From NCBI GenBank assembly GCA_030690165.1, contig JAUYHF010000007.1, positions 26,722-90,721 on the forward strand: a stretch of 64,000 nucleotides of DNA, in the 5' to 3' direction. Every line of letters begins with the position of its first letter. The stretch's first letter is position 1. Positions 22,669 through 47,587 of this stretch are shown piece by piece. The position numbers and the translations under genes were made by a program. Origin of the DNA: Deltaproteobacteria bacterium (lineage in GTDB: Bacteria; Desulfobacterota; GWC2-55-46; UBA9637). The notes beneath the pieces were generated by a model, which had not been told where the DNA came from, searched no databases, and saw only the letters and a program-made list of their open reading frames with translations.

Positions 22669-22992
22669 GATCCAAGTATAGCCATCGCACTCAGCCTCAT
22701 CTTGGTTGCGACCAGTGTATTGGCCGCTCCAGCCAGCTACCGACTGCGGGTAGACGGACTCGCTTGCCCGTTCTGTGCCTATGGCATCGAGAAGAAGCTG
22801 GGCGCGCTTGAAGGCGTCCAGAGCGTTGAAACGCACATCAAAGACGGTGTCGTGATCGTCACCATGAAGGGTGGGGTTACGCTCGATGAAGCAACGGCCA
22901 AAAAGGCGGTGAAAGAAGCCGGCTTTAATCTGCGCAGCTTCGAACAGACCCAAGCCGCTCCACAAAGCACACCGGGAGGACAGGCAAATTGA
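22600..22992 (+). CDS. periplasmic HMA-domain protein; native start lost, reading frame now opened by the IS3 stub
   Basis: From about 22676: ..IAIALSLILVATSVLAAPA (signal-peptide remainder) then YRLRVDGLACPFCAYGIEKKLGALEGVQSVE (HMA with CPFC). G+C-rich codon usage. Confidence 0.6.
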   Translation: MIPNKSYDKNFKAKVALEALKFIDPSIAIALSLILVATSVLAAPASYRLRVDGLACPFCAYGIEKKLGALEGVQSVETHIKDGVVIVTMKGGVTLDEATAKKAVKEAGFNLRSFEQTQAAPQSTPGGQAN

Positions 22993-23882
22993 AGACGGTG
23001 TTGAGGACGGGGGTGGCCGCCTTGTGCCTATGGAGCGCAGCCGCCTGGAGTGCGCCGAGCACCTTCAATACCGCCCTTCCGGTCTACGAGGACGGCTGGG
23101 TTCTGCGCGAGCAGTTTTTATTCATGAAGAACGCCGACGATCCCACGTCCGCGAACCGCGACATGGAAGTGTCAGGCGTTATGTCGGTGCTGGGTTATGG
23201 CGTAACCCGTGATCTCGCGTTGTTTGGTGTGCTGCCCTACTTCGATAAACGCCTGGATATGACCATGGGCGGGCAGGATATCACCCGTCGTAAACAGGGC
23301 ATGGGCGATATCACTTTAATGGGGCGCTACACGCTGTTCGAGCGCAATGCTCAGGGACAGACATTGCGTGTGGCGCCGTTTCTTGGGGTGAAAGCCCCGA
23401 CTGGCAGCGACAACGCCCGGGACGGTTTGGGGCGTCTGCCGCCGCAGGTTCAGCTTGGTTCAGGTTCATGGGATATACTCGGCGGTGTGGTCGGCACTTA
23501 CCAAACGCTGGATTTCGAGATCGACGGCCAAGTGAGCTACAAGGCCAATCGCGAAGCCAACGGTTTTCAATTCGGCAATGTGACCGAACTCGATGCTTCG
23601 CTCCAGTACCGCCTGTGGCCGCGCAGTTTGGGTGCAGGCCTTCCTGGTTTTCTCTACGGCGTCATAGAAGCCAACCTCGTTCATGCGGCCAAGGACCGGA
23701 GCGGTGGCTTGGCTGACCCGAACTCGGGAGGCGCCACGCTGTTTATCGCGCCTGGGCTGCAATATGTCACCCGCAAATGGATTGTCGAGGCCGGCGTTCA
23801 GATTCCCGTCATCCAGAACCTCAATGGCACGGCGCTCAAGAACGATTATGTCTTTACCACCGGGTTCCGCATCAACTTCTAA
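22989..23882 (+). CDS. outer-membrane beta-barrel protein (MetA-pathway/transporter-type porin)
   Basis: 297 aa, signal peptide (CLWSAAAWSAP), alternating beta-strand pattern, C-terminal TTGFRINF. High G+C. Confidence 0.6.
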   Translation: MKTVLRTGVAALCLWSAAAWSAPSTFNTALPVYEDGWVLREQFLFMKNADDPTSANRDMEVSGVMSVLGYGVTRDLALFGVLPYFDKRLDMTMGGQDITRRKQGMGDITLMGRYTLFERNAQGQTLRVAPFLGVKAPTGSDNARDGLGRLPPQVQLGSGSWDILGGVVGTYQTLDFEIDGQVSYKANREANGFQFGNVTELDASLQYRLWPRSLGAGLPGFLYGVIEANLVHAAKDRSGGLADPNSGGATLFIAPGLQYVTRKWIVEAGVQIPVIQNLNGTALKNDYVFTTGFRINF

Positions 23883-23894
23883 GGAGAATGAGAC

Positions 23895-24887
23895 ATGAAA
23901 CTCACCACCGCTATCAAGGTAGGCCGCACTATCATCATCGTAGCGGCGGTCTTCATGGTGGCCGGCCGGCTGGCTTTCGTGCCTTCGGCTAAGGAGCCGT
24001 CCTACCGGTTCGTCACCGCGTGGGGTGAAAAAGGGGATGCCCCGGGACAGTTCAACGACCCGACCGGAATCGCCGTGGCCGGCGACGAGGTGTTTGTCGC
24101 CGATTCCCGCAACGGCCGCATCCAGGTCTTCGATCTCGACGGCCACTTCAAGCGCCAGTTCGGTTCGCCAGGCGATGGCCCTGGCCGGTTGGGCCGGCCG
24201 ATGAATCTCACGGTTCACGAGGGCGAGCTCTACGTTGCCGAGTACTTCAACGACCGCATCCAGATGTTCGCGCTCGACGGCACCCCGAAGCGGACCATCG
24301 GCAAGCCGGGAAGCGGCCCAGGCGAATTCAATGCGCCGGGTGGGGTGGCCGTGGCGCCGAACGGCGATCTGTTTATCGCCGATTTCTACAATCAGCGTAT
24401 CCAGCACCTCAAGGCGAACGGCCGCTTTGTGCGCCAGTGGGGCACGACCGGTAAAATCGGCATCTGGGCGGAGGAGTTCAACTATCCCACGGACGCGGCC
24501 TTGGGTCCCGACGGCATCCTTTACGTGGCCGATGGCTACAACGACCGGATACAGGTCTTCGGTTCCGACGAGACTTTCCTGCGCAAATGGGGCGGCCCGT
24601 TCGCCATGAACATCTTCGGCCCGTTCAACGGCTGGTTTGCGACGGTGACCAATGTGACGGTCGACAGGAAAGGCGATGTGTTCGTCGCTGACTTTTACAA
24701 CCATCGGATTCAGAAATTCGCCGCCGATGGCACGTTCCTGACCCGCTTCGGCACGAAGGGAAGCGGCCCAGGCCAGTTTAATCATGCCATCGCTGTGGCG
24801 GCGGCCGATGACGGAACGGTATTCGCCGTCGATTTCGGCAACAACCGCGTGGGAAAATGGCGGCAGGGAATGAGTTATGAGCGGTAG
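23895..24887 (+). CDS. NHL-repeat six-bladed beta-propeller protein
   Basis: Repeated G.G.GQFN.P.GVAV...G.L(Y/F)VAD..N.RIQ.F blades (six copies); N-terminal TM/signal. High G+C. Confidence 0.8.
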   Translation: MKLTTAIKVGRTIIIVAAVFMVAGRLAFVPSAKEPSYRFVTAWGEKGDAPGQFNDPTGIAVAGDEVFVADSRNGRIQVFDLDGHFKRQFGSPGDGPGRLGRPMNLTVHEGELYVAEYFNDRIQMFALDGTPKRTIGKPGSGPGEFNAPGGVAVAPNGDLFIADFYNQRIQHLKANGRFVRQWGTTGKIGIWAEEFNYPTDAALGPDGILYVADGYNDRIQVFGSDETFLRKWGGPFAMNIFGPFNGWFATVTNVTVDRKGDVFVADFYNHRIQKFAADGTFLTRFGTKGSGPGQFNHAIAVAAADDGTVFAVDFGNNRVGKWRQGMSYER

Positions 24888-25794: not shown

Positions 25795-26637
25795 GTGCAA
25801 CACTTAGGAAAGGAAGGTATCCTAAGTGAATGCTGGTTTCATGGATTTTGGAAGTATGTTGAGGAGATTATTGTGAATCAAGATAAGTCGAAAATAACGA
25901 AGAGAAAGGCAAGGTATATTATAGGTGCCTCAATCCTTATCATCATAATTCTTACCAGTTTTGCCCTGCTACCAGACTCTCTCGTGGCATTCCTCGAGCC
26001 AGAGGGGAGCATACAGAGGTGGCTAACCGCCGCTGGGAAGATGGCACCGCTGCTCTTCATTGCAGTAATGGCTTTAACGGTTGCAAGCCCGTTACCGACG
26101 CTTCCCCTGGATATAGCCGCGGGGGCATTATTCGGCCCGTTTCTGGGGACGCTGTATGCTGTGTTTGGCGCTTCTTGTGGAGCCATGATTAATTTTTTTC
26201 TGGCCCGTTATCTTGGGCGAAAATTTATTGAACGTTTTCTCAAGGGGCATATCAATTTTTGCACGATCTGTTCGGACAAACTCGTGGCCCGCCTGATTCT
26301 TATATCCCGACTGGTGCCGGTAATTTCTTTTGACCTGATAAGTTATGGAGCCGGGCTCACGAAAGTTTCTGCCCGGTCCTTTTTTCTGGCGAATTTCTTG
26401 GGCATGATCCCGCTCACGTTGGCCTACACATTGTTAGGCAAGTACGTGACCATCAAACTGTGGATGGCAATTCCCCTGGGGGTAGTCATGGTGGCGCTGT
26501 TTTTTGCCATCCCTTACTGGCTTGAGAAGCATGACCTATTCGGGGTGAGCAAGCTGTTCCGCCATCCAGAAGCCGATCAAGAAAAGCAAACAGGGACACT
26601 TTCAGATATGCTAAAAGACGTCAAAGAAAGGAGGTGA
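25795..26637 (+). CDS. TVP38/TMEM64 (DedA-related, VTT-domain) membrane protein, copy 1
   Basis: PLPTLPLDIAAGALFGPFLGTLYAVFGASCGAMINFFLARYLGRKF...LISRLVPVISFDLISYGAGLT. The true start may be GTG 25873 (after GAGGAG). Confidence 0.8.
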   Translation: MQHLGKEGILSECWFHGFWKYVEEIIVNQDKSKITKRKARYIIGASILIIIILTSFALLPDSLVAFLEPEGSIQRWLTAAGKMAPLLFIAVMALTVASPLPTLPLDIAAGALFGPFLGTLYAVFGASCGAMINFFLARYLGRKFIERFLKGHINFCTICSDKLVARLILISRLVPVISFDLISYGAGLTKVSARSFFLANFLGMIPLTLAYTLLGKYVTIKLWMAIPLGVVMVALFFAIPYWLEKHDLFGVSKLFRHPEADQEKQTGTLSDMLKDVKERR

Positions 26638-26849: not shown

Positions 26850-27464
26850 ATGTGTCAAAATTGGAAGAAGATGGTTATAATAGCATTACTGGCATTGCCA
26901 TTGATTATGATGGGAGGTTTTAGAGGGGATGCTCAGGCAGGTGAAAAGAACCCCTGTGCAAAAAATCCTTGCGCCATGAAAAACCCATGCGCCAAGAATC
27001 CATACGCGGCTAATCCATGCGCGGCGAAGAAAGATATGGCAAAAAGTTCAAAACCTATCAGGAAAATAACTATTACCGATAAGGACAAACTCATGAAGCT
27101 GGGCGAGAAACTATGGAATGACACAAAGCTCGGGACATCCGGTGCGGCCTGCGCTTTATGCCATCCCGGTGGCAAGGGTCTGAAGAAAGCCCCGTTTCCA
27201 AAATATCTGAAGATGCCTGATGATATTTTAACCTTAGACCAAATGATAAATTTCTGCATGGAAAACCCCATGAAGGGCAAGCCGCTATCATGGAACTCGA
27301 TAAAGATGACTGCCCTGGCAGCCTATATCCAGGCCAATGCAAAGGAGGAAGGGGAGGGAGGGACGCCTGCAAATCCGTGCGCTGCAAAGAATCCTTGCAT
27401 GATGAAAAACCCCTGTGGTATAAAGAATCCGTGTATGATGAAAAACCCATGCGGGAAGGAGTAG
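26850..27464 (+). CDS. secreted monohaem c-type cytochrome flanked by KNPC cysteine-repeat arms
   Basis: Signal peptide; N-arm GEKNPCAKNPCAMKNPCAKNPYAANPCAAKK; CALCH haem motif; C-arm ANPCAAKNPCMMKNPCGIKNPCMMKNPCGKE; AAGGAGG RBS. Confidence 0.75.
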   Translation: MCQNWKKMVIIALLALPLIMMGGFRGDAQAGEKNPCAKNPCAMKNPCAKNPYAANPCAAKKDMAKSSKPIRKITITDKDKLMKLGEKLWNDTKLGTSGAACALCHPGGKGLKKAPFPKYLKMPDDILTLDQMINFCMENPMKGKPLSWNSIKMTALAAYIQANAKEEGEGGTPANPCAAKNPCMMKNPCGIKNPCMMKNPCGKE

Positions 27465-33449: not shown

Positions 33450-34189
33450 GTCAAGAAGTCCGTATATATCCAGATATAGAATTGTTGAGCCATGAAGCAG
33501 CCAGGGAGATGGTTTATCTGATATGTACTGTTGCGGCAGAGAAAGGCAGATTTACTATCGCACTGTCCGGCGGCCGCACCCCTGTAGCCCTCTACCAACT
33601 CATAGCCGGCAAGTACAGCAGCCGGATTCCATGGGACAAAGTCCATATTTTCTGGGGGGACGAGAGATATGTTCCTGCGGGCCATGCAGACAGCAATTTT
33701 GCAATGGCCTCTAAAACGCTTATATCTCATATAAACATACCAACTCAAAATGTCCATCCTGTTCCTATTGAATTGAAACCAATAGAAAGGGTTGCAGAGG
33801 CGTATGAGCAGATGCTTAAGGGTTTTTTTTTAAGGGAATCTTCTTTCCCTTGCCTTGACTTAATACTGCTTGGCGTGGGAGAGGATGGGCATACAGCCTC
33901 ACTTTTTCCTGGAGATTCTGCTATAAGAGAGATGCATAGATTGGTTATGCCTGTTATTGCCCCAGCCAATTATCCTCCAAGAAATAGGATAACCCTTACC
34001 CTTCCTGTAATAAACAGCGCGGACAATGTCTTCTTTATTGCGGCGGGGAGTGAAAAAGGCAAGGTTATTCGCTCCATTCTTGAGGATAGAAAAACTACCG
34101 GAAGGCTTTATCCGGCAGCGATGGTGCAGCCGAAGGGACGCATTATTTGGTTTCTGGATAACAAGGCTTACACCTCACATAAAAATTAA
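33434..34189 (+). CDS. pgl: 6-phosphogluconolactonase
   Basis: ALSGGRTP...WGDERYVP...LLGVGEDGHTASLFPG. Overlaps the zwf stop. Confidence 0.93.
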   Translation: MDNAVSQEVRIYPDIELLSHEAAREMVYLICTVAAEKGRFTIALSGGRTPVALYQLIAGKYSSRIPWDKVHIFWGDERYVPAGHADSNFAMASKTLISHINIPTQNVHPVPIELKPIERVAEAYEQMLKGFFLRESSFPCLDLILLGVGEDGHTASLFPGDSAIREMHRLVMPVIAPANYPPRNRITLTLPVINSADNVFFIAAGSEKGKVIRSILEDRKTTGRLYPAAMVQPKGRIIWFLDNKAYTSHKN

Positions 34190-34920
34190 TGAACCGGATC
34201 AATATGAAGAAACCCCCTTTGCTGACATGGCTCAAGGCGCTCATAGTTGCAGTCCTTATCATAGGGCTGTTTGCGGCTTTCAGGTATTCTGACCTCTCTT
34301 CCAGATTGCGTGATGTGTTGGCATGGATAGAAAACCTGGGATGGATCGGTGTTGGCGCTTACATTCTCATATACATTGCGGCATGTGTATTTTTACTTCC
34401 CGGGTCAGTTCTGACGCTTGGGGCAGGTGTTGTTTTTGGTGTAGTCAAGGGCTCCATAATTGTCTCCATTGCATCAACTCTGGGCGCAACCATAGCATTT
34501 CTCACCGGCCGTTATATCGCGCGGGGTTGGGTTGTGCGTCAGATTGAAAAGAGGCCTTTTTTCCGGGCAATTGATGAGGCGATTTCGGCAGAAGGCTGGA
34601 AAATCGTCCTGTTGACACGCCTGTCTCCGGTATTTCCATTCAGTCTTATGAATTACGCATTGGGACTGACCCCTGTAAAGTTAAAGGATTATGTTCTGGC
34701 CTCGTGGATTGGTATGCTTCCGGGGACAGTTATGTATGTCTACATTGGTTCACTGGCCGGAAGTCTTGTATCCCTGGGCGGAGCCGCCAACGGACGGCAG
34801 CGGTCTACCGGCGAGTGGGCGCTTTACGGAATCGGCCTTTTGGCCACATTAATCGTCACGGTATATGTCACACGCATTGCTAAACGCGCTTTATCGCAAA
34901 AAATAAGCAAGGTAGAATGA
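34189..34920 (+). CDS. TVP38/TMEM64 (VTT-domain) membrane protein, copy 2
   Basis: LPGSVLTLGAGVVFGVVKGSIIVSIASTLGATIAFLTGRYI...LTRLSPVFPFSLMNYALGLT. Confidence 0.85.
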   Translation: MNRINMKKPPLLTWLKALIVAVLIIGLFAAFRYSDLSSRLRDVLAWIENLGWIGVGAYILIYIAACVFLLPGSVLTLGAGVVFGVVKGSIIVSIASTLGATIAFLTGRYIARGWVVRQIEKRPFFRAIDEAISAEGWKIVLLTRLSPVFPFSLMNYALGLTPVKLKDYVLASWIGMLPGTVMYVYIGSLAGSLVSLGGAANGRQRSTGEWALYGIGLLATLIVTVYVTRIAKRALSQKISKVE

Positions 34921-34974
34921 TATGAGCTGTTGTGGAAACTTCTGCAACAAAAATAATTTTACCAGACTATATTT

Positions 34975-34990
34975 TGTAATATAGCATACA
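34975..34990. promoter_or_regulatory. CRP-like box TGTAA-N6-ATACA (site 2), part of a 24-nt repeat
   Basis: TGTAATATAGCATACAGAAAAATT is identical to 35583-35606. Upstream of the AhpD-like gene. Confidence 0.45.
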
Positions 34991-35050
34991 GAAAAATTTT
35001 ATAGATCTCTATAAAATGATTTATATAAATTAAGAAGGAGGTAAATTGCT

Positions 35051-35581
35051 ATGGATAGAATCAAATCTTTAAATAAAAATGTAGCAGCAGGAGAGGTAAA
35101 AGAAATATTGGAAGAGATCGAGAAAAATTTTGGAATGATCCCCAACTTGTTTAAAACCTATGCCCATTTTCTGCCCCTTTTAAAAGCGAATTGGAACAAG
35201 GTAAAAGAAGTAATGATGCAGGGAGACCTGAGCAATAAGGTAAAACAGACCATTGCGGTTCTGGTTTCCAAGGACAATAACTGCAAGTATTGCATAGCCG
35301 CTCATACTGCTGCGTTAAAATCCATTGGGGTTTCAGATGAAGAAATCAAAATAATTGAGGATGATGTCAGACGTTCAGACTTCAGTGAAAAAGAAAAAGC
35401 GATTATCGGTTTTGTCCGGAAAGCGAATCTCGAACCTCTGAAGATTTCCGATGCCGAATTTAATTCGCTCCGACAATCAGGCGCTTCGGACAGCGAAATC
35501 ATTGAGGCACTTGGGGTCATGGAATTATTTACCGGGTTCAACAAGTTCCTCGATTCTCTACAGATCGGTATTGATTTCTAA
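35051..35581 (+). CDS. carboxymuconolactone decarboxylase/AhpD-like family protein
   Basis: 176 aa; NNCKYCIAAHT (CxxC-x2-H AhpD-type motif). Confidence 0.8.
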   Translation: MDRIKSLNKNVAAGEVKEILEEIEKNFGMIPNLFKTYAHFLPLLKANWNKVKEVMMQGDLSNKVKQTIAVLVSKDNNCKYCIAAHTAALKSIGVSDEEIKIIEDDVRRSDFSEKEKAIIGFVRKANLEPLKISDAEFNSLRQSGASDSEIIEALGVMELFTGFNKFLDSLQIGIDF

Positions 35582-35582
35582 A

Positions 35583-35598
35583 TGTAATATAGCATACA
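35583..35598. promoter_or_regulatory. CRP-like box TGTAA-N6-ATACA (site 3), upstream of crp copy 2
   Basis: Same 24-nt word as 34975-34998. Confidence 0.45.
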
Positions 35599-35632
35599 GA
35601 AAAATTCAATAATAAGGTGTAGTATTATTATC

Positions 35633-36316
35633 ATGAATAAACTCTGGTACCTAAAACAATGCGATATATTTAGCGGTATGGATAAAGATAAATTAGATAA
35701 AATCAACGATATTGCAAAAGAAAGGCATATCCCTAAGAATGAATTTATCTATTCCGCTCAGGACAAAGATGATCGGATGTTTATTCTTAAAAAAGGGAGG
35801 GCAAGGATTTTTAAGGTCTCAGCAGATGGTAAAATGATTACCTTATCTATTCTGAGAGAAGGAGATATTTTTGGAAGGATGTCAGCAGTAAGAGGAGGAA
35901 CCTCCGGGGCCTACGCCGAGACTTTAGAGGATTCCTATATCTGTGTAATCCATCAGGATGATTTTCATAATGCAGTTAAGGAGATGCCGGAGATTGCATT
36001 GAGATTGATCGAATTAATAAACCATAGGCTAAAAGAGGCAGAGGATAGAATAGAAGATTTGGTTTTCCGTAATATCCCTGGCAGAATTGCAGGTATCCTT
36101 TTGAAACTGGCTGAACAGTTTGGAAAAGATACCAGTGAAGGGATTCAGATTAATTTCAAGATTACTCATCAGGAATTGGCTGATATGGTTGGAGCCACAC
36201 GCGAAACCGTTACTATTATTTTAAATGACTTTAAGAATGATAACTTGATAAAGATAAGTGAAAAATATATCACCATAATTGATGAGAAGATATTAAAAGA
36301 ATGGGCTGGAAGGTGA
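35633..36316 (+). CDS. Crp/Fnr-family transcriptional regulator (copy 2)
   Basis: 227 aa; cNMP-binding domain plus HTH (THQELADMVGATRETVTIILNDFKN). Paralogous to 25035-25706. Confidence 0.9.
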   Translation: MNKLWYLKQCDIFSGMDKDKLDKINDIAKERHIPKNEFIYSAQDKDDRMFILKKGRARIFKVSADGKMITLSILREGDIFGRMSAVRGGTSGAYAETLEDSYICVIHQDDFHNAVKEMPEIALRLIELINHRLKEAEDRIEDLVFRNIPGRIAGILLKLAEQFGKDTSEGIQINFKITHQELADMVGATRETVTIILNDFKNDNLIKISEKYITIIDEKILKEWAGR

Positions 36317-36351
36317 GAGAAAGAGCGAGTCCGATTGATGGAAAAAATAAA

Positions 36352-36570
36352 ATGATATCAAAATCTATAATTCAATGCCCTGAATGCGGATTTAAAAAGG
36401 AAGAGGTGATGCCGGAAGATTCTTGCCAGTATTTCTACGAATGTACAAATTGTAAAACACGCATAAAGGCAAAACATGGAGACTGTTGTGTCTTTTGTTC
36501 TTATGGAAGTGTTAAGTGTCCGTCAAAACAAAATGAGAATAAAGAATTAAAGGGAGGTAAAGATGTTTAG
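36352..36570 (+). CDS. GDCCVxC-domain Cys-rich metal-binding protein
   Basis: CPECGFKKEEVMPEDSCQYFYECTNCKTRIKAKHGDCCVFCSYGSVKCP. The start is uncertain (ATG 36352 vs 36301, which overlaps crp). Confidence 0.65.
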   Translation: MISKSIIQCPECGFKKEEVMPEDSCQYFYECTNCKTRIKAKHGDCCVFCSYGSVKCPSKQNENKELKGGKDV

Positions 36571-37093
36571 AAAGATAAAGATATTAATGGTTATTGTCAT
36601 GATTGTATTGATCACATTTTTGGGGAGCAGCCTGTTTGCCGAAGGGAAGAAGACAATCCTCTTCCACCTTAAGACAGGCCTTAAGCAAGACGATGCCCAG
36701 ATATGTGTGGCGTATAACGAGATATGGGCAGCCATGGAATCCGGATTCAGTGTAGATGTGCTTATTGATGCCAGTGCAGTAAATACTTATAAAAGAGGGT
36801 TCTTTGGGAAGGACTCTTTGGAAAACTATAAACTGCCTGAGGGTATGCGGCAGGTACTGGCGCATCAATTCAATATCCCGATACAAAAGGTGCCTCAGGT
36901 TTACGGTGAATATTTAACTATGCTCCACAATAAAGGCGCCGTCTTTTATATCAATAGTGAGATGATGATTACTGCTGGTATTGCCAGGGATGAGAATGAC
37001 ATGGAAAAGATCTCGGCAAAATTCTTTAAACCTATTAGCATGAAAAAGATCATTGAACTCCGGACAAAGGCGGATTATTATCTGGCTTATTAA
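36563..37093 (+). CDS. secreted hypothetical protein, possibly DsrE/DsrF-like fold
   Basis: Signal peptide, then KKTILFHLKTG..DDAQICVAYNEIWAAMESGFSVDVLIDASAV, which resembles the DsrE-family N-terminal pattern. Weak call. Confidence 0.3.
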   Translation: MFRKIKILMVIVMIVLITFLGSSLFAEGKKTILFHLKTGLKQDDAQICVAYNEIWAAMESGFSVDVLIDASAVNTYKRGFFGKDSLENYKLPEGMRQVLAHQFNIPIQKVPQVYGEYLTMLHNKGAVFYINSEMMITAGIARDENDMEKISAKFFKPISMKKIIELRTKADYYLAY

Positions 37094-37120
37094 GCCGGAA
37101 TAAACAAAAAGGAGCATTTT

Positions 37121-39535
37121 ATGGGTTTAGTCAAGGGTCTAAATTTGAATAGCAGCGGGCTGTTTCCGGCGGAAAAACCTTTTGGAAAGCCCGGACTTCC
37201 ATCGAACTGGTCTTCTGCTTCAAAGCAGGGTGTGGGAACAGCCTGCAATGATATTTCAAAGGTGTGGTTTACTATAGCAAACGGGATTATCACAGAGGTC
37301 TTTTATCCCACAGTAGATACAGCCAATATAAAAGACCTTCAGATTTTGGTAACCGACGGCAAGACGTTCGTTGATGAGGAGAGGAAAGACACAATATCAA
37401 GCATAGAGTATATTGCCCCAAAGTCCCTTGCTTATAGGATAATCAATACTGCCAAAAATGGAAGATACAAGATTGTTAAGCATATTGTAACAGATACTTA
37501 TGGGCAATCATTGGTGATTAAGACTTCATTTCAGGCCTTAAAGGGAAATCCAGATGATTACCGTCTTTTTATCTATCTTGCCCCGCATATAAAAAACAAA
37601 GGTTACGGAAACTCCGGCAGATGTATCAGCTATGCTGGCAAGGATTATCTCATTGCCTGGCGGGAAGATATCGCCATTGCCCTTACCGCCAACATACCTT
37701 TTAAAAATATGTCATGCGGTTATTCCGGTTATTCGGACGGCTGGCATGATTTGAAAAATAATCTAAAAATGGACTGGTTTTTTCACCGGATTGAGGATGG
37801 AAATATTGCCATGATTGCGGAGATTGACGCAAAGGAATTTACCGCAGTCCTCTCCTTCGGAAGAGATGATGTGGAGGCAGTGCAGGAAGCTAACAAAACT
37901 TTGGAAAGGGGTTATGATGCCATAGAAGCAGGGTATATAAAAGAATGGCATAATTATTTATCCAAACTGAAAGATTTTAGTGAAGAGGGTTTTGACAACG
38001 GCAGGCTTTATTGGATAAGCACGATGGTAGTAAAGGCCCATGAAGATAAGACCTACAAAGGCGGGGTTATCGCCTCGTTGTCCATACCATGGGGTGAAAG
38101 CAAATCAGATACAGAGACTGGCGGTTATCATCTTGTATGGCCAAGAGACATGGTAAAGGCAGCCTTTAGCTTTATGGCAATGGGAGACATGGATACACCT
38201 CTCGCGATACTTAAATTCCTTGAACGAACTCAGAAATCTGATGGCTCATGGCCGCAGAACATGTGGCTTGACGGCAGGCCATACTGGAACGGCGTGCAAT
38301 TGGACGAAGTGGCATTTCCCATACTTCTGGCATGGAGGCTTGGGGCTATGGGTATGCTGAAAGAAAATTTTTATCCCATGATTAAAAAGGCTGCGTCATA
38401 TCTGGTAAAGGAAGGCCCTATTACAGAGCAGGAGCGGTGGGAAGAGAATTCAGGCTTTTCTCCATCTACTCTGGCCATTGAAATCGTTGCCCTGATTTGC
38501 GCGGCTCAGCTGGCCAAAAAAATGGGAGAGGATAGAGAATCAAAATATCTCTTTGATATCGCAGATTATTGGCAGACACATATTGAAGACTGGACATTCA
38601 CTGATTGCGGTTGTCTCCTTTCTGAGCATCCTGAGCATTACCAGAGGATTGCCTCTGTTGCCCCTGAATCGCTTGATATGGGAGGAACAGCGTGTCAGAT
38701 ATTCCTTCCGATAAAAAACCTGCCATCCGAATCTATAAGAGAACATTCGCAATGTTCTGTTGTGGACGGCGGTTTTTTAGAATTGGTGAGATACGGCATA
38801 AGAGACCCGAAAGACCCGCATATTCTTAAGACCCTTCCTGTTATTGATAAACTACTCAAGATGGATACGCCATTCGGCGCTGTCTGGCACAGATATAATA
38901 ATGATGGTTATGGAGAAAAGGAAGACGGCTCGCCTTTTGACGGCTCAGGCATCGGAAGGGCATGGCCCCTGCTTACTGGCGAAAGGGGAATGTATGAATT
39001 TCTTGCCGGTAGTTCTATTGACCCTTACTTGAAGGCAATGCAGGGCTTTGCCAATGATGGTGGAATGATTCCAGAGCAGGTGTGGGATGCAGAGGATATA
39101 CCGGAAAAAGGACTTTTCAAAAATAGAGGCACCGGCTCGGCCACACCTCTTGTATGGGCGCATGCCGAGTATATAAAACTCTTGGTCAGCAAAAAAGAGT
39201 GCAGAGGCTGCGACATTGTTGATGAGATATACCAGAGATATGTGGTTAAAAAGACAAAGAGCAATATTATCGCATGGAAGATAAATAAACCTATAAAACG
39301 GATACAGGCATCAAACACCTTGCGAATTGTTACTTCTGAGATAGCCCTACTTCACTGGAGTAAGGATAACTGGAAAACCGTAAGGGACGATACCTTTGAG
39401 ATAACCGGGCTCGGGCTCTTTTATATTGATATACCTGCCGGGACATTTCAACAGGGAGACACCTGTATATTTACCTTCTACTATCCTGTGACGGATAAAT
39501 GGGAGGGTAAGGACTATATTTTAGTTGTGGAATAG
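37121..39535 (+). CDS. glycoside hydrolase family 15 glucoamylase/glucodextranase-type enzyme
   Basis: 804 aa; N-terminal beta-sandwich plus (alpha/alpha)6 domain with YHLVWPRDM and EQERWEENSGFSPSTLA catalytic-region motifs. Confidence 0.85.
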   Translation: MGLVKGLNLNSSGLFPAEKPFGKPGLPSNWSSASKQGVGTACNDISKVWFTIANGIITEVFYPTVDTANIKDLQILVTDGKTFVDEERKDTISSIEYIAPKSLAYRIINTAKNGRYKIVKHIVTDTYGQSLVIKTSFQALKGNPDDYRLFIYLAPHIKNKGYGNSGRCISYAGKDYLIAWREDIAIALTANIPFKNMSCGYSGYSDGWHDLKNNLKMDWFFHRIEDGNIAMIAEIDAKEFTAVLSFGRDDVEAVQEANKTLERGYDAIEAGYIKEWHNYLSKLKDFSEEGFDNGRLYWISTMVVKAHEDKTYKGGVIASLSIPWGESKSDTETGGYHLVWPRDMVKAAFSFMAMGDMDTPLAILKFLERTQKSDGSWPQNMWLDGRPYWNGVQLDEVAFPILLAWRLGAMGMLKENFYPMIKKAASYLVKEGPITEQERWEENSGFSPSTLAIEIVALICAAQLAKKMGEDRESKYLFDIADYWQTHIEDWTFTDCGCLLSEHPEHYQRIASVAPESLDMGGTACQIFLPIKNLPSESIREHSQCSVVDGGFLELVRYGIRDPKDPHILKTLPVIDKLLKMDTPFGAVWHRYNNDGYGEKEDGSPFDGSGIGRAWPLLTGERGMYEFLAGSSIDPYLKAMQGFANDGGMIPEQVWDAEDIPEKGLFKNRGTGSATPLVWAHAEYIKLLVSKKECRGCDIVDEIYQRYVVKKTKSNIIAWKINKPIKRIQASNTLRIVTSEIALLHWSKDNWKTVRDDTFEITGLGLFYIDIPAGTFQQGDTCIFTFYYPVTDKWEGKDYILVVE

Positions 39536-39552
39536 TCTGGAATAAAAAGGAG

Positions 39553-40269
39553 GTGATGATGAATAAATTACAAATATTCTTATTGTTGTTTATAATCATC
39601 TTCTTCCCGTTAATCAGTTATGCCGGGGATAAGGTTTTTTTAAGGGAGGAATTCAATGACCTCTCGAATTGGAATCCGCTCAATTTCCCTAAGATAAAAA
39701 GACATACCATTTATACCATAGAATCCAATGGGGAAGAGAGATATCTCAAGGCGGAGAGCGATGCCTCTGCCTCCGGAATAATATACAAGAAGGAGTTTAA
39801 TGTTTATGAATTCCCTAAGGTTAAGTGGCGCTGGCGGGTAGAGAATATATATAAAAAGGGGGATGTGAAAACAAAGGAAGGGGATGACTATCCGATCAGG
39901 GTTTATGTCGCCTTTAAATATAATCCGGAAAAGGCAACCTTTTCGGAAAAGTTAAAATATAATGCGGCAAAATTATTATACGGGGACTATCCCCCATACA
40001 GCGCTATCAGTTATATCTGGTCAAGCAAGGAATATCCGGAGAGGATGTTTACCAGCAAATATACAGACAGGGCAAAGATGATCCTCTTAGAGCAAGGGAG
40101 TACAAATGTCGGCAAATGGAAGACAGAGGAGGTAAATATCATAGATGACTATAAAGCCGCCTTTGGTGAAGATCCTCCTTCTGTTGCCACCATTGCTATC
40201 ATGAATGATTCTGACAATACAGGGGAGAAGGGGATTTCTTATATGGATTATATTGAGGTATATAAGTGA
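39553..40269 (+). CDS. secreted DUF3047-like protein
   Basis: Signal peptide; W..L.FPKIK..T.Y.....GE..LKAES.ASASG...K.F......P.V.WRWRV...........GDDYPIRVYVAF pattern. Confidence 0.55.
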   Translation: MMMNKLQIFLLLFIIIFFPLISYAGDKVFLREEFNDLSNWNPLNFPKIKRHTIYTIESNGEERYLKAESDASASGIIYKKEFNVYEFPKVKWRWRVENIYKKGDVKTKEGDDYPIRVYVAFKYNPEKATFSEKLKYNAAKLLYGDYPPYSAISYIWSSKEYPERMFTSKYTDRAKMILLEQGSTNVGKWKTEEVNIIDDYKAAFGEDPPSVATIAIMNDSDNTGEKGISYMDYIEVYK

Positions 40270-40354
40270 TGGAAATATTTTGACCTAACCATAAAAAGAC
40301 ATTATGTTGATAATCTGGTTAAATTTTACCTAAAACCTTAATTACAGGAGGGGT

Positions 40355-41437: not shown

Positions 41438-41497
41438 GAGCGCCATGAGGAGAAAGGGAAATAGTTTATCTGAAGGCAGAGGGAGTAACTGACGATT

Positions 41498-42610
41498 ATG
41501 GGTATAGCACTTCTTTTTCTGGCCACTTTATTCCTGGCCTATTTTAACGGGGCAAATGATAATTTTAAAGGTGTGGCCACACTCTTCGGAAGTAAGACCA
41601 TAAATTATAGGGACTCTTTATATTTGGCCACCATAACCACCCTTGCCGGTGCTCTTTGTTCTGTTTACATATCCTTCTCTCTTATTAAAATTTTCTCAGG
41701 AAAAGGGCTTGTTCCGGATAGTATTGCGGCCTCTCCTGAATTCTTATCAACTGTGGCCATAGGCGCAGGATTAACAATAATGCTTGCCACCCTGACCGGT
41801 TTCCCTGTCTCTACCACGCATAGTTTAACCGGAGCCTTGATTGGCGCCGGTTTTATGGCTATCGGCACACAGATAAATCTCAATACCCTGATTAACTCCT
41901 TCCTTCTCCCTCTTTTATTAAGCCCGTTAATCTCTGTTTCTCTCTCTGCCCTGCTTTATGCAGGATTACATTATCTGCGAATACAGGCCGACGTATGCAA
42001 GGAGTGGTGTGTTTGCGTAGGAGAGACGGAGCAACTGATCCCCATCCTTCAACCAAATTCTCTCGCGTGCCTTGAAGGTATAAAGGGGATAGATGCCTCT
42101 ATCGGCACAGTAGACGAATGTAAGGAGAGATACACAGGTAAATTTATAGGGATCGAATATCAGAAACTGATAGACCTGCTCCATATCTTTAGCGCCGGAA
42201 GTGTGAGTTTCGCAAGGGGATTAAATGATACCCCAAAGATTGTGGCCTTGCTTATGACGGCTTCAGTATTTGATATCAAATATGGGATCATGGCGATTGC
42301 CGCAGGGATGGCTATGGGTGGGATTCTTAATGCCCATAAGGTGGCGCAGACGATGAGCAAAAAGATTGTCCCATTGAACCCGGGACAGGGATTTGTTGCA
42401 AACCTTACCACCGCCATACTTGTGTTTTTTGCGAGCAGAGCCGGTCTGCCGGTATCCACTACCCATGTCTCGGTTGGTTCTATCTCCGGCATTGGTCTCA
42501 TTAATAAAAAGGTGAACATAAAGATCATTTCAGATATTTTGCTGGCATGGATATTAACCTTACCGGTATCAGCTATTCTCAGTGCGGGTATTTATTTGGC
42601 ATTAAAATAA
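41498..42610 (+). CDS. PiT/PHO4-family anion (phosphate/sulfate-type) transporter
   Basis: Two PHO4 repeats (GANDNFKGVATLFGS; ARGLNDTPK). The central loop has five Cys (CKEWCVCVG...ACLEG...DEC). Confidence 0.8.
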   Translation: MGIALLFLATLFLAYFNGANDNFKGVATLFGSKTINYRDSLYLATITTLAGALCSVYISFSLIKIFSGKGLVPDSIAASPEFLSTVAIGAGLTIMLATLTGFPVSTTHSLTGALIGAGFMAIGTQINLNTLINSFLLPLLLSPLISVSLSALLYAGLHYLRIQADVCKEWCVCVGETEQLIPILQPNSLACLEGIKGIDASIGTVDECKERYTGKFIGIEYQKLIDLLHIFSAGSVSFARGLNDTPKIVALLMTASVFDIKYGIMAIAAGMAMGGILNAHKVAQTMSKKIVPLNPGQGFVANLTTAILVFFASRAGLPVSTTHVSVGSISGIGLINKKVNIKIISDILLAWILTLPVSAILSAGIYLALK

Positions 42611-42627
42611 TCTTAAGGGGGATAACC

Positions 42628-44049
42628 ATGGAAGAATTTGATCTGACTATAATCGGCGGAGGTGTGGGCGGCCTGGTTGCGGCAAGCGGCGCAAGCCAGT
42701 TCGGGGCAAAGGTGGCCTTAGTGGAGAAAGAGAATCTGGGTGGAGATTGTCTCCATTATGGTTGTGTGCCCACAAAGACCCTTGTCCATTCTGCAAGGCT
42801 TATCTCTCTTATGCGCAGGGCTACGGAGTTTGGCCTGAACCCTGTAACGGTGGATTTTGAATTTAAGAAGATAATGGAGCATATGCGTGAGGTGCAAAAA
42901 AAGGTAGGGGAGCATGATGACCCTAAACGCTTTGAGAAGATGGGGATAAAATTATTTTTTGGAAAGGGAGGGTTTAAGGATACCCGGACATTTGAGGTAA
43001 ACGGCACAAACATAAAAAGCAGGAAATTTCTTATCGCCACCGGTTCCCGACCGGTAAAATTGCCGATCCCTGGTCTGGACAAAGTAGATAGCTTGGACAA
43101 CATAAAGATATTGGCCATTAATCACCTTCCTGAGTCCATTCTGATAATGGGCGCTGGACCAATCGGCATGGAATTTGCCCAGGTCTTCAGCAGATTTGGT
43201 TCAAAGGTAACAGTAATTGAGAAGGCAGGTCAGATCCTTCCGAGAGAAGAAAAGGAGCTCTCAGATAGATTAGAAGGGATATTAAAGAGGGAAGGTATGG
43301 AAATCATTACCTGTGTTGAGACCAAAAGGGTAGAACAGTCTGGGAATAAAAGGATAGTAGTGGCTGAGTGCAGCGGTAAAGAAAAGAGATTTGAGGCAGA
43401 CGAACTCTTAGTTGCCATAGGAAGGGCGCCGAATATCGAAGGTATGAACCTTGAAAAGATAGGGGTTAAAACTACCTCAAAGGGGATAGTAGTTAATGAT
43501 ACCATGAAGACTACAGTCTCCAATATCTGGGCATGCGGTGATGTTACGGGAATGTTTCCATTTACCCATATGGCGGAATATGAGGCCGGAATAGTAATCG
43601 GGAACGCCCTCTTTCCATTTGTAAATAGAAAGATGGATAAGACAGTAGTCCCCTGGACGACCTTTACTGATCCTGAGCTTGCCCGTGTTGGTCTGACAGA
43701 GGATGAGGCAAGAAAGGAATATGGGGATATCAGGGTCTACAGATACCCCTTCTCTGAACATGACCGCGCAATAATAGACGGAGAAACAGAGGGGATGATC
43801 AAACTTATATGTGACAAGAAAGGTAAAATATTAGGCGCCCATATCCTTGGAAAGGGCGCAGGGGATCTGCTAAATGAATATACCTTTGCTATGAAGAATG
43901 GTCTTCCGGTGCAGAAGATATCACAGACCGTCCATGTATATCCGACAATGGGGCAGGTAGTAAAGAGGGGCGCGGACCAGTATTATAAGGAAAGGCTATT
44001 TTCCGGCTGGTTTCCAAAGGTGGCAAGGTTTTTAATGAAATTTAAATAA
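42628..44049 (+). CDS. class I pyridine nucleotide-disulfide oxidoreductase (dihydrolipoyl dehydrogenase/'mercuric reductase-like' group)
   Basis: DLTIIGGGVGGLVAA, redox CxxxxC (GGDCLHYGCVPTK), second Rossmann motif (ILIMGAGPIGMEFA), dimerisation domain. No NmerA domain and no C-terminal Cys pair. ATG 42628 is preferred over the listed 42547. Confidence 0.8.
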   Translation: MEEFDLTIIGGGVGGLVAASGASQFGAKVALVEKENLGGDCLHYGCVPTKTLVHSARLISLMRRATEFGLNPVTVDFEFKKIMEHMREVQKKVGEHDDPKRFEKMGIKLFFGKGGFKDTRTFEVNGTNIKSRKFLIATGSRPVKLPIPGLDKVDSLDNIKILAINHLPESILIMGAGPIGMEFAQVFSRFGSKVTVIEKAGQILPREEKELSDRLEGILKREGMEIITCVETKRVEQSGNKRIVVAECSGKEKRFEADELLVAIGRAPNIEGMNLEKIGVKTTSKGIVVNDTMKTTVSNIWACGDVTGMFPFTHMAEYEAGIVIGNALFPFVNRKMDKTVVPWTTFTDPELARVGLTEDEARKEYGDIRVYRYPFSEHDRAIIDGETEGMIKLICDKKGKILGAHILGKGAGDLLNEYTFAMKNGLPVQKISQTVHVYPTMGQVVKRGADQYYKERLFSGWFPKVARFLMKFK

Positions 44050-44073: not shown

Positions 44074-46080
44074 ATGGAACTAATAGATAAGATGGTAGAT
44101 GTGATGAAAAATAAGATAAAGGTTATTCAGATAAATCTGGGTGATAAATGCAATCTGCGATGCGCTCACTGCCATATTGAGGCTTCTCCGGAAGGAAACA
44201 GAAATATGGATTCCAATACAGCAATGAAGGTCATCAAAAGATTAATCGAGACAGATATCAAAGATATTGAATTCACCGGCGGGGCGCCTGAATTAAACCC
44301 TAATCTGCGGCTCTTTATCGAAGAGCTCTCCAGCCATAATAAAAATCTGACTGTAAGGACTAACCTGACTGTGCTCGACTCACCTGCCTATTCCCTTTAC
44401 ATTGATCTATATAAAAAATATAAGGTGAAGGTCATTGCCTCTCTGCCCGACATATTTCCTGATACTACTGATAAGCAAAGAGGAAAGGGTGTTTTCCAAA
44501 AGAGTATAAATGTCCTGAATAGACTTAATGCGATTGGTTACGGGAGAGATGGCCTGTTATTAGACCTCGTGTATAACCCGGTAGGAGATTATCTGCCGCC
44601 TGACCAAAACGAGATTGAGAATAATTATAAAAGGTTATTGAAAGAGAGATATGACATCACCTTTAACAATCTTATACCCATTGTTAACTCGCCCATTAAG
44701 AGATTTAAGGAATCTCTTCAACAGACAGGCAGGTTAGAAGAATATCTAAAACTGCTTAAAAAGAGTTACAACCCTGCCACAATAGATAAGCTAATGTGCA
44801 GGAATCTGATTTCTATTGATTATAGGGGTTATGCCTACGACTGCGATTTTAATCTGGCCTTAGGTATGAAGACTAAAGGTTATGAAGACAGGAAATTCTG
44901 GGAGATAGACCTGCACAATTTTAATCAGGAGATCACCTTTGGGCAACATTGTTATGCCTGTACTGTTAATATGGGGAGCTCTTGCCATGGTGTTCTGATA
45001 AAAGAGGAGGAATCCAGACCAATGGGATTTGTTATGAAAGAAAATGTAAAGAGATATTATGGTGAAGAGTTGCAAAAGACCTCTGACTTAAAGACAGGGG
45101 CGTGCTGCAGCGCTGATCTTATCCCGGATTATGTTAAAGATGCGCTTATGCTGATAAATGATGAAATAAAGATGAAATATTACGGATGCGGCTCGCCTAT
45201 CCCGCTTTGCGTCGAGGGTTTGAATGTGCTTGATATGGGCTGTGGCACAGGGAGGGATAGTTATGTCATGTCAAAACTTGTAGGAGAGAATGGCTTTGTC
45301 TATGGTGTTGATATGACGGAAAATCAGGTAGGTATCGCCAAAAGATACATTAAAGAACAGACCGATAGATTCGGATACAAAAAGCCGAATATAGAGTTTA
45401 TCCTCGATAATATGGAAAATATAACCAAACACCTTAAAGAAGAATCAATAGATCTGGTAATCTCCAATTGCGTAATAAATCTGTCTGAGGATAAGGAGGC
45501 GGTCCTGAAGGCAATATTTAATGTCTTGAAGTGGGGAGGGGAATTTTATTTTTCCGATGTTTATGCAGACAGGAGGGCGCCTGACGAGATAAGGAAAGAC
45601 CCGCTTCTTTTTGCCGAGTGTCTTGGAGGGGCTTTGTATTATAAAGATTTTGTGCGGATAGCAAGAATATCCGGTTTCACTGATCCGCGCATTATATCTC
45701 AAAGGGAGATTCCTATTACAAATCCGGAGATTAGCAGTCTCACAGGCAATCTCAGATTCTATTCTATAACCTATCGCCTCTGGAAATTGGAAGGGCTTGA
45801 AGATGCCTGCGAGGATTACGGGCATATGGCCGTCTATAGAGGCGGAATCCCTGTATCACCATTCCGGTTTGAACTTGACGGCTCCCATATTTTTTATACA
45901 AACAAACCTGAACGTGTATGCGGTAATACTGCGCTGATGTTATCCAAGACAAGATTTGGCAGATATTTTGAAATAATCGGTGATTTAAAGGAACACTTCG
46001 GAGAATTCAAGGAATGCGGCACACCAGATAAATCTGATAGTAATAATAAAAATAGTAGTGTTCAGAGGGGATGTTGTTAG
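44074..46080 (+). CDS. fusion protein: ArsS-like radical-SAM (arsenosugar-type) N-half plus ArsM arsenite S-adenosylmethionine methyltransferase C-half
   Basis: One 668-aa ORF. N-half: CNLRCAHC (Cx3Cx2C), TGGAPELNP, LMCRNLISIDYRGYAYDCDFN, HCYACTVNMGSSCHG. C-half: YYGEELQKTSDLKTGACCS, YYGCGSPIP, VLDMGCGTGRD, SNCVINLSEDK. Ends ..VQRGCC. Confidence 0.8.
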   Translation: MELIDKMVDVMKNKIKVIQINLGDKCNLRCAHCHIEASPEGNRNMDSNTAMKVIKRLIETDIKDIEFTGGAPELNPNLRLFIEELSSHNKNLTVRTNLTVLDSPAYSLYIDLYKKYKVKVIASLPDIFPDTTDKQRGKGVFQKSINVLNRLNAIGYGRDGLLLDLVYNPVGDYLPPDQNEIENNYKRLLKERYDITFNNLIPIVNSPIKRFKESLQQTGRLEEYLKLLKKSYNPATIDKLMCRNLISIDYRGYAYDCDFNLALGMKTKGYEDRKFWEIDLHNFNQEITFGQHCYACTVNMGSSCHGVLIKEEESRPMGFVMKENVKRYYGEELQKTSDLKTGACCSADLIPDYVKDALMLINDEIKMKYYGCGSPIPLCVEGLNVLDMGCGTGRDSYVMSKLVGENGFVYGVDMTENQVGIAKRYIKEQTDRFGYKKPNIEFILDNMENITKHLKEESIDLVISNCVINLSEDKEAVLKAIFNVLKWGGEFYFSDVYADRRAPDEIRKDPLLFAECLGGALYYKDFVRIARISGFTDPRIISQREIPITNPEISSLTGNLRFYSITYRLWKLEGLEDACEDYGHMAVYRGGIPVSPFRFELDGSHIFYTNKPERVCGNTALMLSKTRFGRYFEIIGDLKEHFGEFKECGTPDKSDSNNKNSSVQRGCC

Positions 46081-46812: not shown

Positions 46813-47223
46813 ATGCATTTTAAAAGACCTGAAAGACATGACATAGGACTGGATATGACGCCGATTATTGATGTGGTGTTTAATCTCCTCATATTCTTTG
46901 CATTATCATTTAATTTCGGCATAACCCCCGGCATTCAGGTAAGACTTCCTGCTGCAAAAGGGGATGTATTAAAACATGAGAAAAAAGAGGTCATTGTGGT
47001 TGTAAAAAAAGACGGCAGTATATATCTTGAGCAGAAAAAGATAATCCTTTCAGACCTTCTGTCTGAACTTAGAAATGTCTTTCGCACAAATCCTGATATA
47101 TCACTCATAATACAGGGCGATGAAGATGCTTTATATGGCAAGGTTGTAAGGATCATGGACTCGGCAAAAAAGGCAGGTATTACAAAGATTGCAGTTGCAA
47201 CAAGACCTGAGGATGTGTTATAG
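46813..47223 (+). CDS. exbD: ExbD/TolR-family protein
   Basis: 136 aa; LDMTPIIDVVFNLLIFF TM with conserved Asp; periplasmic domain. Confidence 0.88.
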   Translation: MHFKRPERHDIGLDMTPIIDVVFNLLIFFALSFNFGITPGIQVRLPAAKGDVLKHEKKEVIVVVKKDGSIYLEQKKIILSDLLSELRNVFRTNPDISLIIQGDEDALYGKVVRIMDSAKKAGITKIAVATRPEDVL

Positions 47224-47245
47224 AAAAAGAAAGGAGGTGATACCG

Positions 47246-47587
47246 ATGAGTATTTCAAAGACAGTTATTGCAGCGCTTTTTTTGGTTTTGCTCGTTACAG
47301 TTCCTGCCATGGCAGATGAAAAGAAAGAGACAAAAAATCCATGTGGCATGATGGGTGGGCACGGCATGATGGGCGGGAAGGGGATGATGGGTGAAGGCAT
47401 GATGGGCGGGATGCATGAAGGCATGATGGGCATGATGAAGGAGATGATGGGGATGATGAAGGAGATGATCCATACCCCAACCGATGCCCAGAAAAAGAGG
47501 CTGGACGAGATGATGATGAAGATGGATGGGATGATGAAGATGCATGACGAGATGATGAAGAAAAAGATGGAAAAGAAGGGGATGTAG
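47246..47587 (+). CDS. secreted Met-rich protein with an N-terminal KNPC motif
   Basis: AAAGGAGG RBS; signal peptide ..VPAMA; DEKKETKNPCGMMGGHGMMGGKGMMGEGMMGGMHEGMMGMMKEMMGMMKEM...MMMKMDGMMKMHDEMMKKKM. Confidence 0.7.
   Translation: MSISKTVIAALFLVLLVTVPAMADEKKETKNPCGMMGGHGMMGGKGMMGEGMMGGMHEGMMGMMKEMMGMMKEMIHTPTDAQKKRLDEMMMKMDGMMKMHDEMMKKKMEKKGM

Follow-up and report, generated by a model that had tools for sequence, protein, structure and literature searches.

A fused ArsS-ArsM protein in an uncultured, probably anaerobic bacterium and the genes that accompany ArsS

Does an uncultured and probably anaerobic bacterium encode, within one polypeptide, both enzymes that lead from arsenite to the first arsenosugar intermediate, and if so, is this arrangement genuine and new? 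[quoted passage not shown] The ORF is real and uninterrupted: the junction DNA (positions 44940-45119) stays open in one frame throughout, and the 3' end reads TGT TGT TAG, that is, Cys-Cys-stop. The ORF list, Pfam, NCBIfam and tblastn searches with each half place ArsS first and ArsM second in a single polypeptide, with the Pfam domains Radical_SAM (residues 20-157), DUF3641 (174-306) and Methyltransf_31 (381-517) recognized in the 668-aa protein. Together with the match to the ArsS model TIGR04167 and the alignments to ArsM structures, these results bear out the proposed architecture.

Table 1 Features of the arsSM locus, in positions of the window
Feature	Coordinates	Strand	Evidence
arsSM, complete gene, 668-aa ArsS-ArsM fusion protein	44074..46080	+	Single ATG-initiated ORF, stop TAG at 46078-46080
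ArsS half, residues 11-308, radical-SAM core and Cys-rich DUF3641 domain	44104..44997	+	TIGR04167; pLDDT mostly 80-97
CxxxCxxC radical-SAM [4Fe-4S] motif, CNLRCAHC, C26/C30/C33	44149..44172	+	No substitution among the 40 aligned family members
Cysteines of the ArsS C-terminal domain, C242, C257, C293, C296, C304	44797..44985	+	5/5 invariant in the 40-sequence alignment
Inter-domain linker, residues 309-320	44998..45033	+	Alignment columns variable in length and sequence; pLDDT <50 over 301-319
ArsM half, residues 321-651, SAM-binding, As(III)-binding and C-terminal domains	45034..46026	+	phmmer against PDB, Foldseek
Polar tail ending in the vicinal pair C667/C668, VQRGCC at 663-668	46027..46077	+	Predicted flexible, pLDDT <50 for 642-668
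Pyridine-nucleotide disulfide oxidoreductase (PNDR, CxxxxC)	42547..44049	+	Pyr_redox_2 and Pyr_redox_dim; 25 nt upstream of arsSM
DUF3047 protein, N-terminal hydrophobic helix	39553..40269	+	PF11249, E=3e-74; 3.8 kb upstream of arsSM
DedA/VTT membrane protein	34189..34920	+	PF09335; 9 kb upstream of arsSM

The N-terminal half matches TIGR04167, the NCBI equivalog model for ArsS, with 370.2 bits (cutoff 300) over model positions 3-303 of 303, whereas the next-best radical-SAM model reaches 52 bits. By its profile match, this half is therefore assigned to the ArsS family, and its affiliation with another radical-SAM/SPASM family, an outcome that had been held open, is dismissed. The DUF3641 domain is detected with PF12345 (E=1.9e-46). 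Three of its conserved cysteines, C293, C296 and C304, lie in HCYACTVNMGSSCHG, and C304 is part of a GSSC sequence that corresponds to the GxxU motif given for the selenoprotein members of TIGR04167 (PMC13188914). In Foldseek searches, the N half hit generic radical-SAM enzymes only (SkfB, EpeE and BlsE, TM about 0.5). To our knowledge, there is no solved structure of ArsS. By extension from characterized relatives, the ArsS half of the window protein would adenosylate dimethylarsenite, DMAs(III), to 5'-deoxy-5'-dimethylarsinoyl-adenosine (DDMAA).

The C-terminal half contains the ArsM motifs ACC (C344/C345), YYGCGSPIP (C372), GCGTGRD (389-395) and SNCVINL (C466); like these, the other motifs quoted in the original prediction, CNLRCAHC, HCYACTVNMGSSCHG and VQRGCC, are all present as stated. 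A phmmer search against the PDB aligned this half end to end with CrArsM of Chlamydomonas (5evj, E=2e-100, 50% identity), with whole chains of CmArsM of Cyanidioschyzon (4fr0/4fs8, E=1e-83, 43%) and with human AS3MT (8xt7, E=8e-66, 39%), all identities being taken over the whole methyltransferase and the 4fr0 and 5evj matches spanning chain residues 21-356. The crystallized enzymes share four cysteines with the window protein, C44, C72, C174 and C224 of CmArsM aligning to C344, C372, C466 and C516, but they are stand-alone methyltransferases that lack the N-terminal radical-SAM module. Structural superposition of the C half on ArsM chains gave a Foldseek target-normalized TM of 0.83-0.93. The curated NCBIfam cutoffs for ArsM were missed (NF008823, 164.7 against 263; NF038099, 89.9 against 400; NF040538, 121.1 against 500), which places this half outside those particular subfamilies but not outside ArsM. 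On sequence grounds, the C half clearly belongs to the ArsM/AS3MT family, and it would be expected to catalyze SAM-dependent methylation of As(III).

An AlphaFold model of the 668-aa protein, built on 40 family members, consists of two well-folded halves (mean pLDDT 82.7, pTM 0.75); the pLDDT drops under 50 at residues 1-4, 301-319 and 642-668 and nowhere else. The ArsS match ends at residue 308 and the ArsM alignment begins at residue 321, which leaves a gap of about 12-15 residues, in line with the proposed linker of about 15 residues. The C-terminal VQRGCC had been read as a dithiol added with the fusion. This interpretation did not survive comparison with stand-alone ArsMs from the metagenome scan (about 350 aa, 48-62% identical to the C half), which end in HFGxFxxCG followed by a polar spacer and CC: at least two cysteines among the last six residues are a feature of nearly all stand-alone ArsMs (57/58) and of nearly all fused proteins (118/119). 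The tail is thus an ArsM trait that was inherited by the fusion rather than a fusion-specific addition; a role in metalloid capture or disulfide exchange is a plausible guess.

How common the fusion is, a point that the original prediction had suggested checking in databases, was addressed by a search of 5.8 billion proteins that produced 1915 matches at E<=1e-10. Among the best 120 of these, 119 are full-length fusions (617-706 aa, 57-92% identity), which come from separate contigs of NCBI, JGI, ENA and Logan assemblies, among them a contig of 3.6 Mb and the RefSeq genome of an isolate. The ArsSM fusion is therefore widespread in anaerobic bacteria: most of the fused relatives belong to Nitrospirota and other anaerobes, the named ones are annotated as 'arsenosugar biosynthesis radical SAM (seleno)protein ArsS' in Nitrospirota, Thermodesulfovibrionales and Chloroflexota MAGs, and family members are found also in Desulfosediminicola and Deferribacter. 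The nearest genome record is that of a 'Deltaproteobacteria bacterium' MAG (92% amino-acid identity), and an exact-sequence look-up of the window protein gave no match. A contig scan with the whole window protein as the query retrieved two loci only; tblastn with each half as a separate query added 17 loci (here, loci are numbered with L) with both halves in one frame. An alignment of 40 relatives (57-92% identity to the window protein) shows no variation in the cysteines of the radical-SAM motif, the five of DUF3641 or the four of ArsM (C344, C372, C466 and C516), which indicates purifying selection on both activities.

The fusion has arisen more than once. Scanned exhaustively with HMMER, 1.84 billion cluster representatives yielded further ArsS-then-ArsM clusters (P0121; P0124, from a Desulfosediminicola isolate; P0126, from Deferribacter thermophilus; P0128) as well as proteins with the reverse order (P0123, P0125, P0135, an 81-member cluster, P0139 from Eggerthellaceae, and P0183), in three of which Pfam confirmed ArsM followed by ArsS. 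The two gene orders by themselves call for at least two independent fusion events. In crude neighbor-joining trees of both domains, computed without support values, the clade of the window protein is one coherent group, so that its two halves apparently evolved together as one gene, and the remaining fusions branch at various places between stand-alone enzymes. In the fusion junction, the sequence GAGGAGG lies 11 nt 5' of the in-frame ATG of M316 and could be taken for a fossil ribosome-binding site. Because this sequence is confined to the clade of the window protein and the other fusions lack a Met at this position, we dropped this reading as a general feature.

Neither the fusion nor the functional link that it suggests is new. 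An 'ArsSM fusion protein' from a paddy-soil sulfate-reducing bacterium is named in the title of Yang et al. 2024 (Environ Sci Technol 58:19266-76, doi 10.1021/acs.est.4c04730), a title that stresses arsenic methylation rather than adenosylation. The name implies the same ArsS-then-ArsM architecture in an anaerobic host, a likeness drawn from the title and not from the sequence; the host there is a sulfate reducer, whereas the window copy comes from an uncultured, MAG-type organism. Going by this title, the architecture has already been described in an anaerobe, so that the fusion is not a novelty, nor is it unexpected in such an organism. In Synechocystis sp. PCC 6803, SsArsM makes the substrate of SsArsS, and the adjacent arsM and arsS genes are co-transcribed. 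These enzymes, which belong to the same families by sequence, take As(III) to DMAs(III) and on to DDMAA (Xue et al. 2019; mechanism in Cheng et al. 2021), the ArsS step being a redox-neutral radical adenosylation of DMAs(III) (PMC13598754). Synechocystis is an oxygenic phototroph with two separate genes, in contrast to the single polypeptide and the anaerobe-type genome of the window. The Rosetta-stone argument of the original prediction is accordingly sound, and strengthened because reverse-order fusions also exist, but the ArsM-to-ArsS link that it yields had already been established experimentally in Synechocystis. The NCBI pipeline automatically names such proteins ArsS.

We then compared the surroundings of ArsS genes. 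For 17 fused genes, the ORFs lying up to 8 kb away were clustered, and the resulting families were searched with tblastn in all 90 loci, which were collapsed to lineages at >=85% ArsM identity, giving 20 lineages with ArsS (fused or separate) and 39 with arsM only. Five families are enriched near ArsS: TIGR04282 (13/20 ArsS lineages against 5/39 arsM-only lineages, p=7e-5), DedA (12/20 against 4/39, p=1e-4), PNDR (9/20 against 4/39, p=0.006), TIGR04283 (11/20 against 9/39, p=0.02) and DUF3047 (7/20 against 4/39, p=0.03). The CxxxxC disulfide reductase, that is, PNDR, is the one proposed neighbor that stood up, whereas the other two, the OYE flavoenzyme (1/20 against 0/39, p=0.34) and the PiT transporter (3/20 against 3/39, p=0.4), show no enrichment and are confined to near-identical relatives of the window. 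The L005 locus, which belongs with the window, L001 and L006 to a group sharing 92-97% nucleotide identity, lacks the PiT gene and the 34.9-40.3 kb block that includes the DUF3047 gene; by this comparison, OYE and PiT represent lineage-specific context. The conserved partners DUF3047, DedA, TIGR04282 and TIGR04283 had been overlooked in the original prediction.

In several lineages, the partners form compact same-strand cassettes, in the orders ArsS-DedA-PNDR-TIGR04283-TIGR04282-DUF3047-ArsM (L060), ArsSM-DUF3047-TIGR04282-PNDR-DedA, with overlapping stop and start codons (L017), and GT2-ArsSM-DUF2064-DedA (L086). PNDR lies inside such cassettes in L017, L025 and L060, and the DUF3047 gene overlaps or directly follows the fusion in L012 and L015-L018. 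TIGR04282 and TIGR04283, which score above the NCBIfam cutoff in the relatives, carry the model name 'arsenosugar biosynthesis glycosyltransferase'. Compared with the cassettes of the fusion relatives, which hold both transferases along with DedA, PNDR and DUF3047, the window retains the latter three, and tblastn found no homologs of either transferase within its 64 kb. The window DedA is 93% identical to that of L005, which is located three genes upstream of the fusion there, and the true start of PNDR is likely the Met at 42628. None of the partner genes was found near the fusion in four loci (L003 and L087-L089). ArsR, Acr3 and ArsC were not found beside the fusion in any Pfam-annotated locus, so the setting looks more like a biosynthetic one than a resistance operon. 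Promoter and terminator scans of the window gave 39 hits where 36 were expected and 10 where 11.5 were expected, respectively, which is what chance predicts, and are uninformative on operon structure; Rfam matched a tRNA alone in the 64 kb, with no rRNA gene.

Taken together, these observations make it probable that arsSM encodes a bifunctional enzyme of an uncultured anaerobe that would methylate As(III) and then form DDMAA. What was computed here is the identity of the two domains, the invariance of their catalytic residues, the flexibility of the tether and the enrichment of partners; the reaction steps are carried over from the separate enzymes. The C-terminal ArsM domain would bind As(III) via C344, C372, C466 and C516 and methylate it stepwise with SAM to DMAs(III). 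In the N-terminal ArsS domain, the [4Fe-4S] cluster held by the CxxxCxxC motif would reductively cleave another SAM molecule, and the resulting 5'-deoxyadenosyl radical would react with DMAs(III), yielding DDMAA, the first committed intermediate of arsenosugar synthesis. The tether may hold DMAs(III), a trivalent intermediate that is toxic and prone to oxidation, near the site of the second reaction and thus raise its local concentration; given this proximity, substrate channeling in ArsSM is plausible. ArsM enzymes are described as working through a disulfide cascade (Marapakala et al. 2015), and the adjacent PNDR is a reasonable candidate for the enzyme that would turn the disulfides formed by ArsM during turnover back into thiols. 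DUF3047 and DedA are part of the conserved ArsS-associated gene set, and the TIGR04282 and TIGR04283 transferases, which this set includes in many relatives, would process DDMAA further.

Other explanations of the locus have to be weighed against this one. That the fusion results from a lost stop codon or a frameshift introduced during sequencing or assembly, joining two neighboring genes, might be considered since separate adjacent arsM and arsS genes do occur in other lineages (L021, L025 and L064). However, with at least 119 full-length fused relatives on independent contigs, the long contig and the isolate genome among them, with 17 further loci fused in frame, far more than chance would give, and with the identical junction in the window, L001, L005 and L006, such an artefact is effectively excluded. 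Another alternative is that ArsSM in the living cell is in essence an arsenite methyltransferase that serves to detoxify arsenite or to release toxic methylarsenite, with the ArsS half in an accessory, regulatory or other radical role and no arsenosugar-type product. The emphasis on methylation in the title of Yang et al. 2024, the absence of both arsenosugar transferase families from the 64-kb window and the several fused loci devoid of partner genes would all fit this explanation. Yet a dispensable domain should decay, whereas the CxxxCxxC motif and the five DUF3641 cysteines are invariant, the N half scores as an ArsS equivalog, and the transferases are encoded nearby in most ArsS lineages (13/20 for TIGR04282 and 11/20 for TIGR04283). 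We therefore consider a purely methylating ArsSM unlikely.

Even less likely, in our assessment, is that the enzyme methylates and adenosylates another metalloid or chalcogen, such as selenium, antimony or tellurium, instead of arsenic. This possibility comes to mind because the fusion in L003 adjoins genes of the rhodanese, SelD-like AIRS, Se/S-carrier, TusA/DsrE and cysteine-desulfurase types, selenoproteins are present within the ArsS family and in several ArsM-like families, and a fusion of an ArsM-like protein with SelD is known in Naegleria (PMC5552862). The selenium gene context, however, is limited to that one locus, selenocysteine serves as a catalytic residue in the selenoprotein members and is uninformative on the substrate, and the protein agrees exactly with the crystallized ArsMs in all four cysteines for As(III) binding and catalysis.

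The bifunctional ArsSM enzyme, which remains our preferred interpretation, would add one uncultured anaerobe to the probable arsenic methylators that also start arsenosugar synthesis, which matters for the arsenic cycle of paddy soils and anoxic sediments. What is left as novel is the uncharacterized partner genes rather than the fusion. A tentative and rather doubtful extension is that ArsS, ArsM, TIGR04282, TIGR04283, DUF3047, PNDR and DedA jointly constitute a complete route from arsenite to an envelope or membrane arsenosugar in strictly anaerobic non-phototrophs; PNDR might recycle the ArsM disulfides via the two flexible cysteine tails, GSSC304 and the C-terminal CC, and exported DUF3047 together with DedA might handle the product at the membrane. 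The predicted model of DUF3047 is a beta-sandwich with weak jelly-roll, lectin and GH11/12-type matches (TM <=0.6, identity <=14%), which suggests sugar binding, although fold matches of this kind are not diagnostic. Fused or not, ArsS tends to be accompanied by PNDR, DedA, DUF3047 and the two transferase families, which are accordingly candidates for the steps that follow DDMAA.

The ArsS-ArsM protein is not the only fusion of ArsM with an enzyme of its pathway. The 554-aa protein encoded at locus L064 joins TIGR04282, annotated as an 'arsenosugar biosynthesis glycosyltransferase', to an ArsM that ends in CC, and a separate arsS gene lies immediately upstream. This fusion is a second Rosetta-stone link within the same pathway. 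At another locus, L090, a 1033-aa protein combines a radical-SAM domain, a methyltransferase of the ArsM-like type that is 31% identical to the ArsM half of the window protein, and an MbdU-like/DUF5714 metal-binding domain. The radical-SAM domain is of the SPASM type and not TIGR04167, the ArsS model. The surrounding cassette encodes TIGR04283, DUF3047, a GalT-like protein, TIGR04282, DedA and a fatty-acid hydroxylase, and ArsS may have been replaced here by a different radical-SAM enzyme.

Fusions in the reverse order, ArsM followed by ArsS, are represented by five proteins (P0123, P0125, P0135, P0139 and P0183), one of which stands for a cluster of 81 members and one of which comes from Eggerthellaceae MAGs. 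ArsS has other fusion partners too: a flavin reductase domain in P0242 and a CMD/AhpD domain in P0260. A stand-alone CMD-family protein is encoded in the window, in the same-strand array upstream of arsSM. Within arsSM itself, the linker carries a purine-rich GAGGAGG 11 nt 5' of the in-frame Met316 ATG, which resembles a ribosome-binding site for the ArsM half; this feature is restricted to the window's own clade.

Coordinates of the features described in the window and at the compared loci
Feature	Location	Strand	Remark
TIGR04282-ArsM fusion	L064:10971-12635	+	TIGR04282 193.5 bits, cutoff 134
Radical-SAM/ArsM-like/DUF5714 protein	L090:9840-12941	+	
Selenium/sulfur-trafficking neighbourhood of fusion	L003:9036-15503		
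Second DedA/VTT paralogue	window 25795-26637	+	
SoxA/TsdA-type cytochrome c gene	window 26850-27464	+	
Stand-alone CMD-family gene	window 35051-35581	+	
DUF3047 gene	window 39553-40269	+	
5' part of listed oxidoreductase ORF	window 42547-42627	+	
GAGGAGG and Met316 ATG	window 45003-45025	+	
Met/Gly/His-rich 132-aa ORF	window 47189-47587	+	

Relatives of the window at 92-97% nucleotide identity differ in gene content (window 34912-40323 and 41477-42623). One of them, L005, lacks the block of CMD, Crp-type regulator, unknown, GH15 glucodextranase and DUF3047 genes, and likewise the PiT gene. Between L006 1572-3777 and window 22673-24874 the identity is just 79%, a value that suggests a paralogous segment. 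At L003, on a 3.6-Mb contig, the genes flanking the fusion encode a rhodanese, an AIRS protein of the SelD-like type, a Se/S-carrier protein, TusA/DsrE and a class V aminotransferase, a neighbourhood not seen at the other loci.

In the window, the GH15 glucodextranase gene ends 18 nt upstream of the DUF3047 gene, whose product is confidently modeled (pLDDT 83, pTM 0.78) as an N-terminal hydrophobic helix followed by a beta-sandwich jelly-roll and resembles lectin, GH11/GH12 and CBM folds only weakly. The disulfide oxidoreductase ORF, as mechanically listed, shares 64 nt with the end of the PiT gene. Its homology sets in at residue 28-31 (MEEFDLTIIGGG), and therefore the true start is probably 42628. 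A second DedA/VTT paralogue adjoins a SoxA/TsdA-type cytochrome c gene. Immediately 3' of ExbB/ExbD lies a 132-aa ORF whose product has a hydrophobic N-terminus and, after it, a stretch extremely rich in Met, Gly and His (MGGHGMMGGKGMMGEGMMGG...). This protein had no match in a Pfam search and may bind metal in the periplasm.
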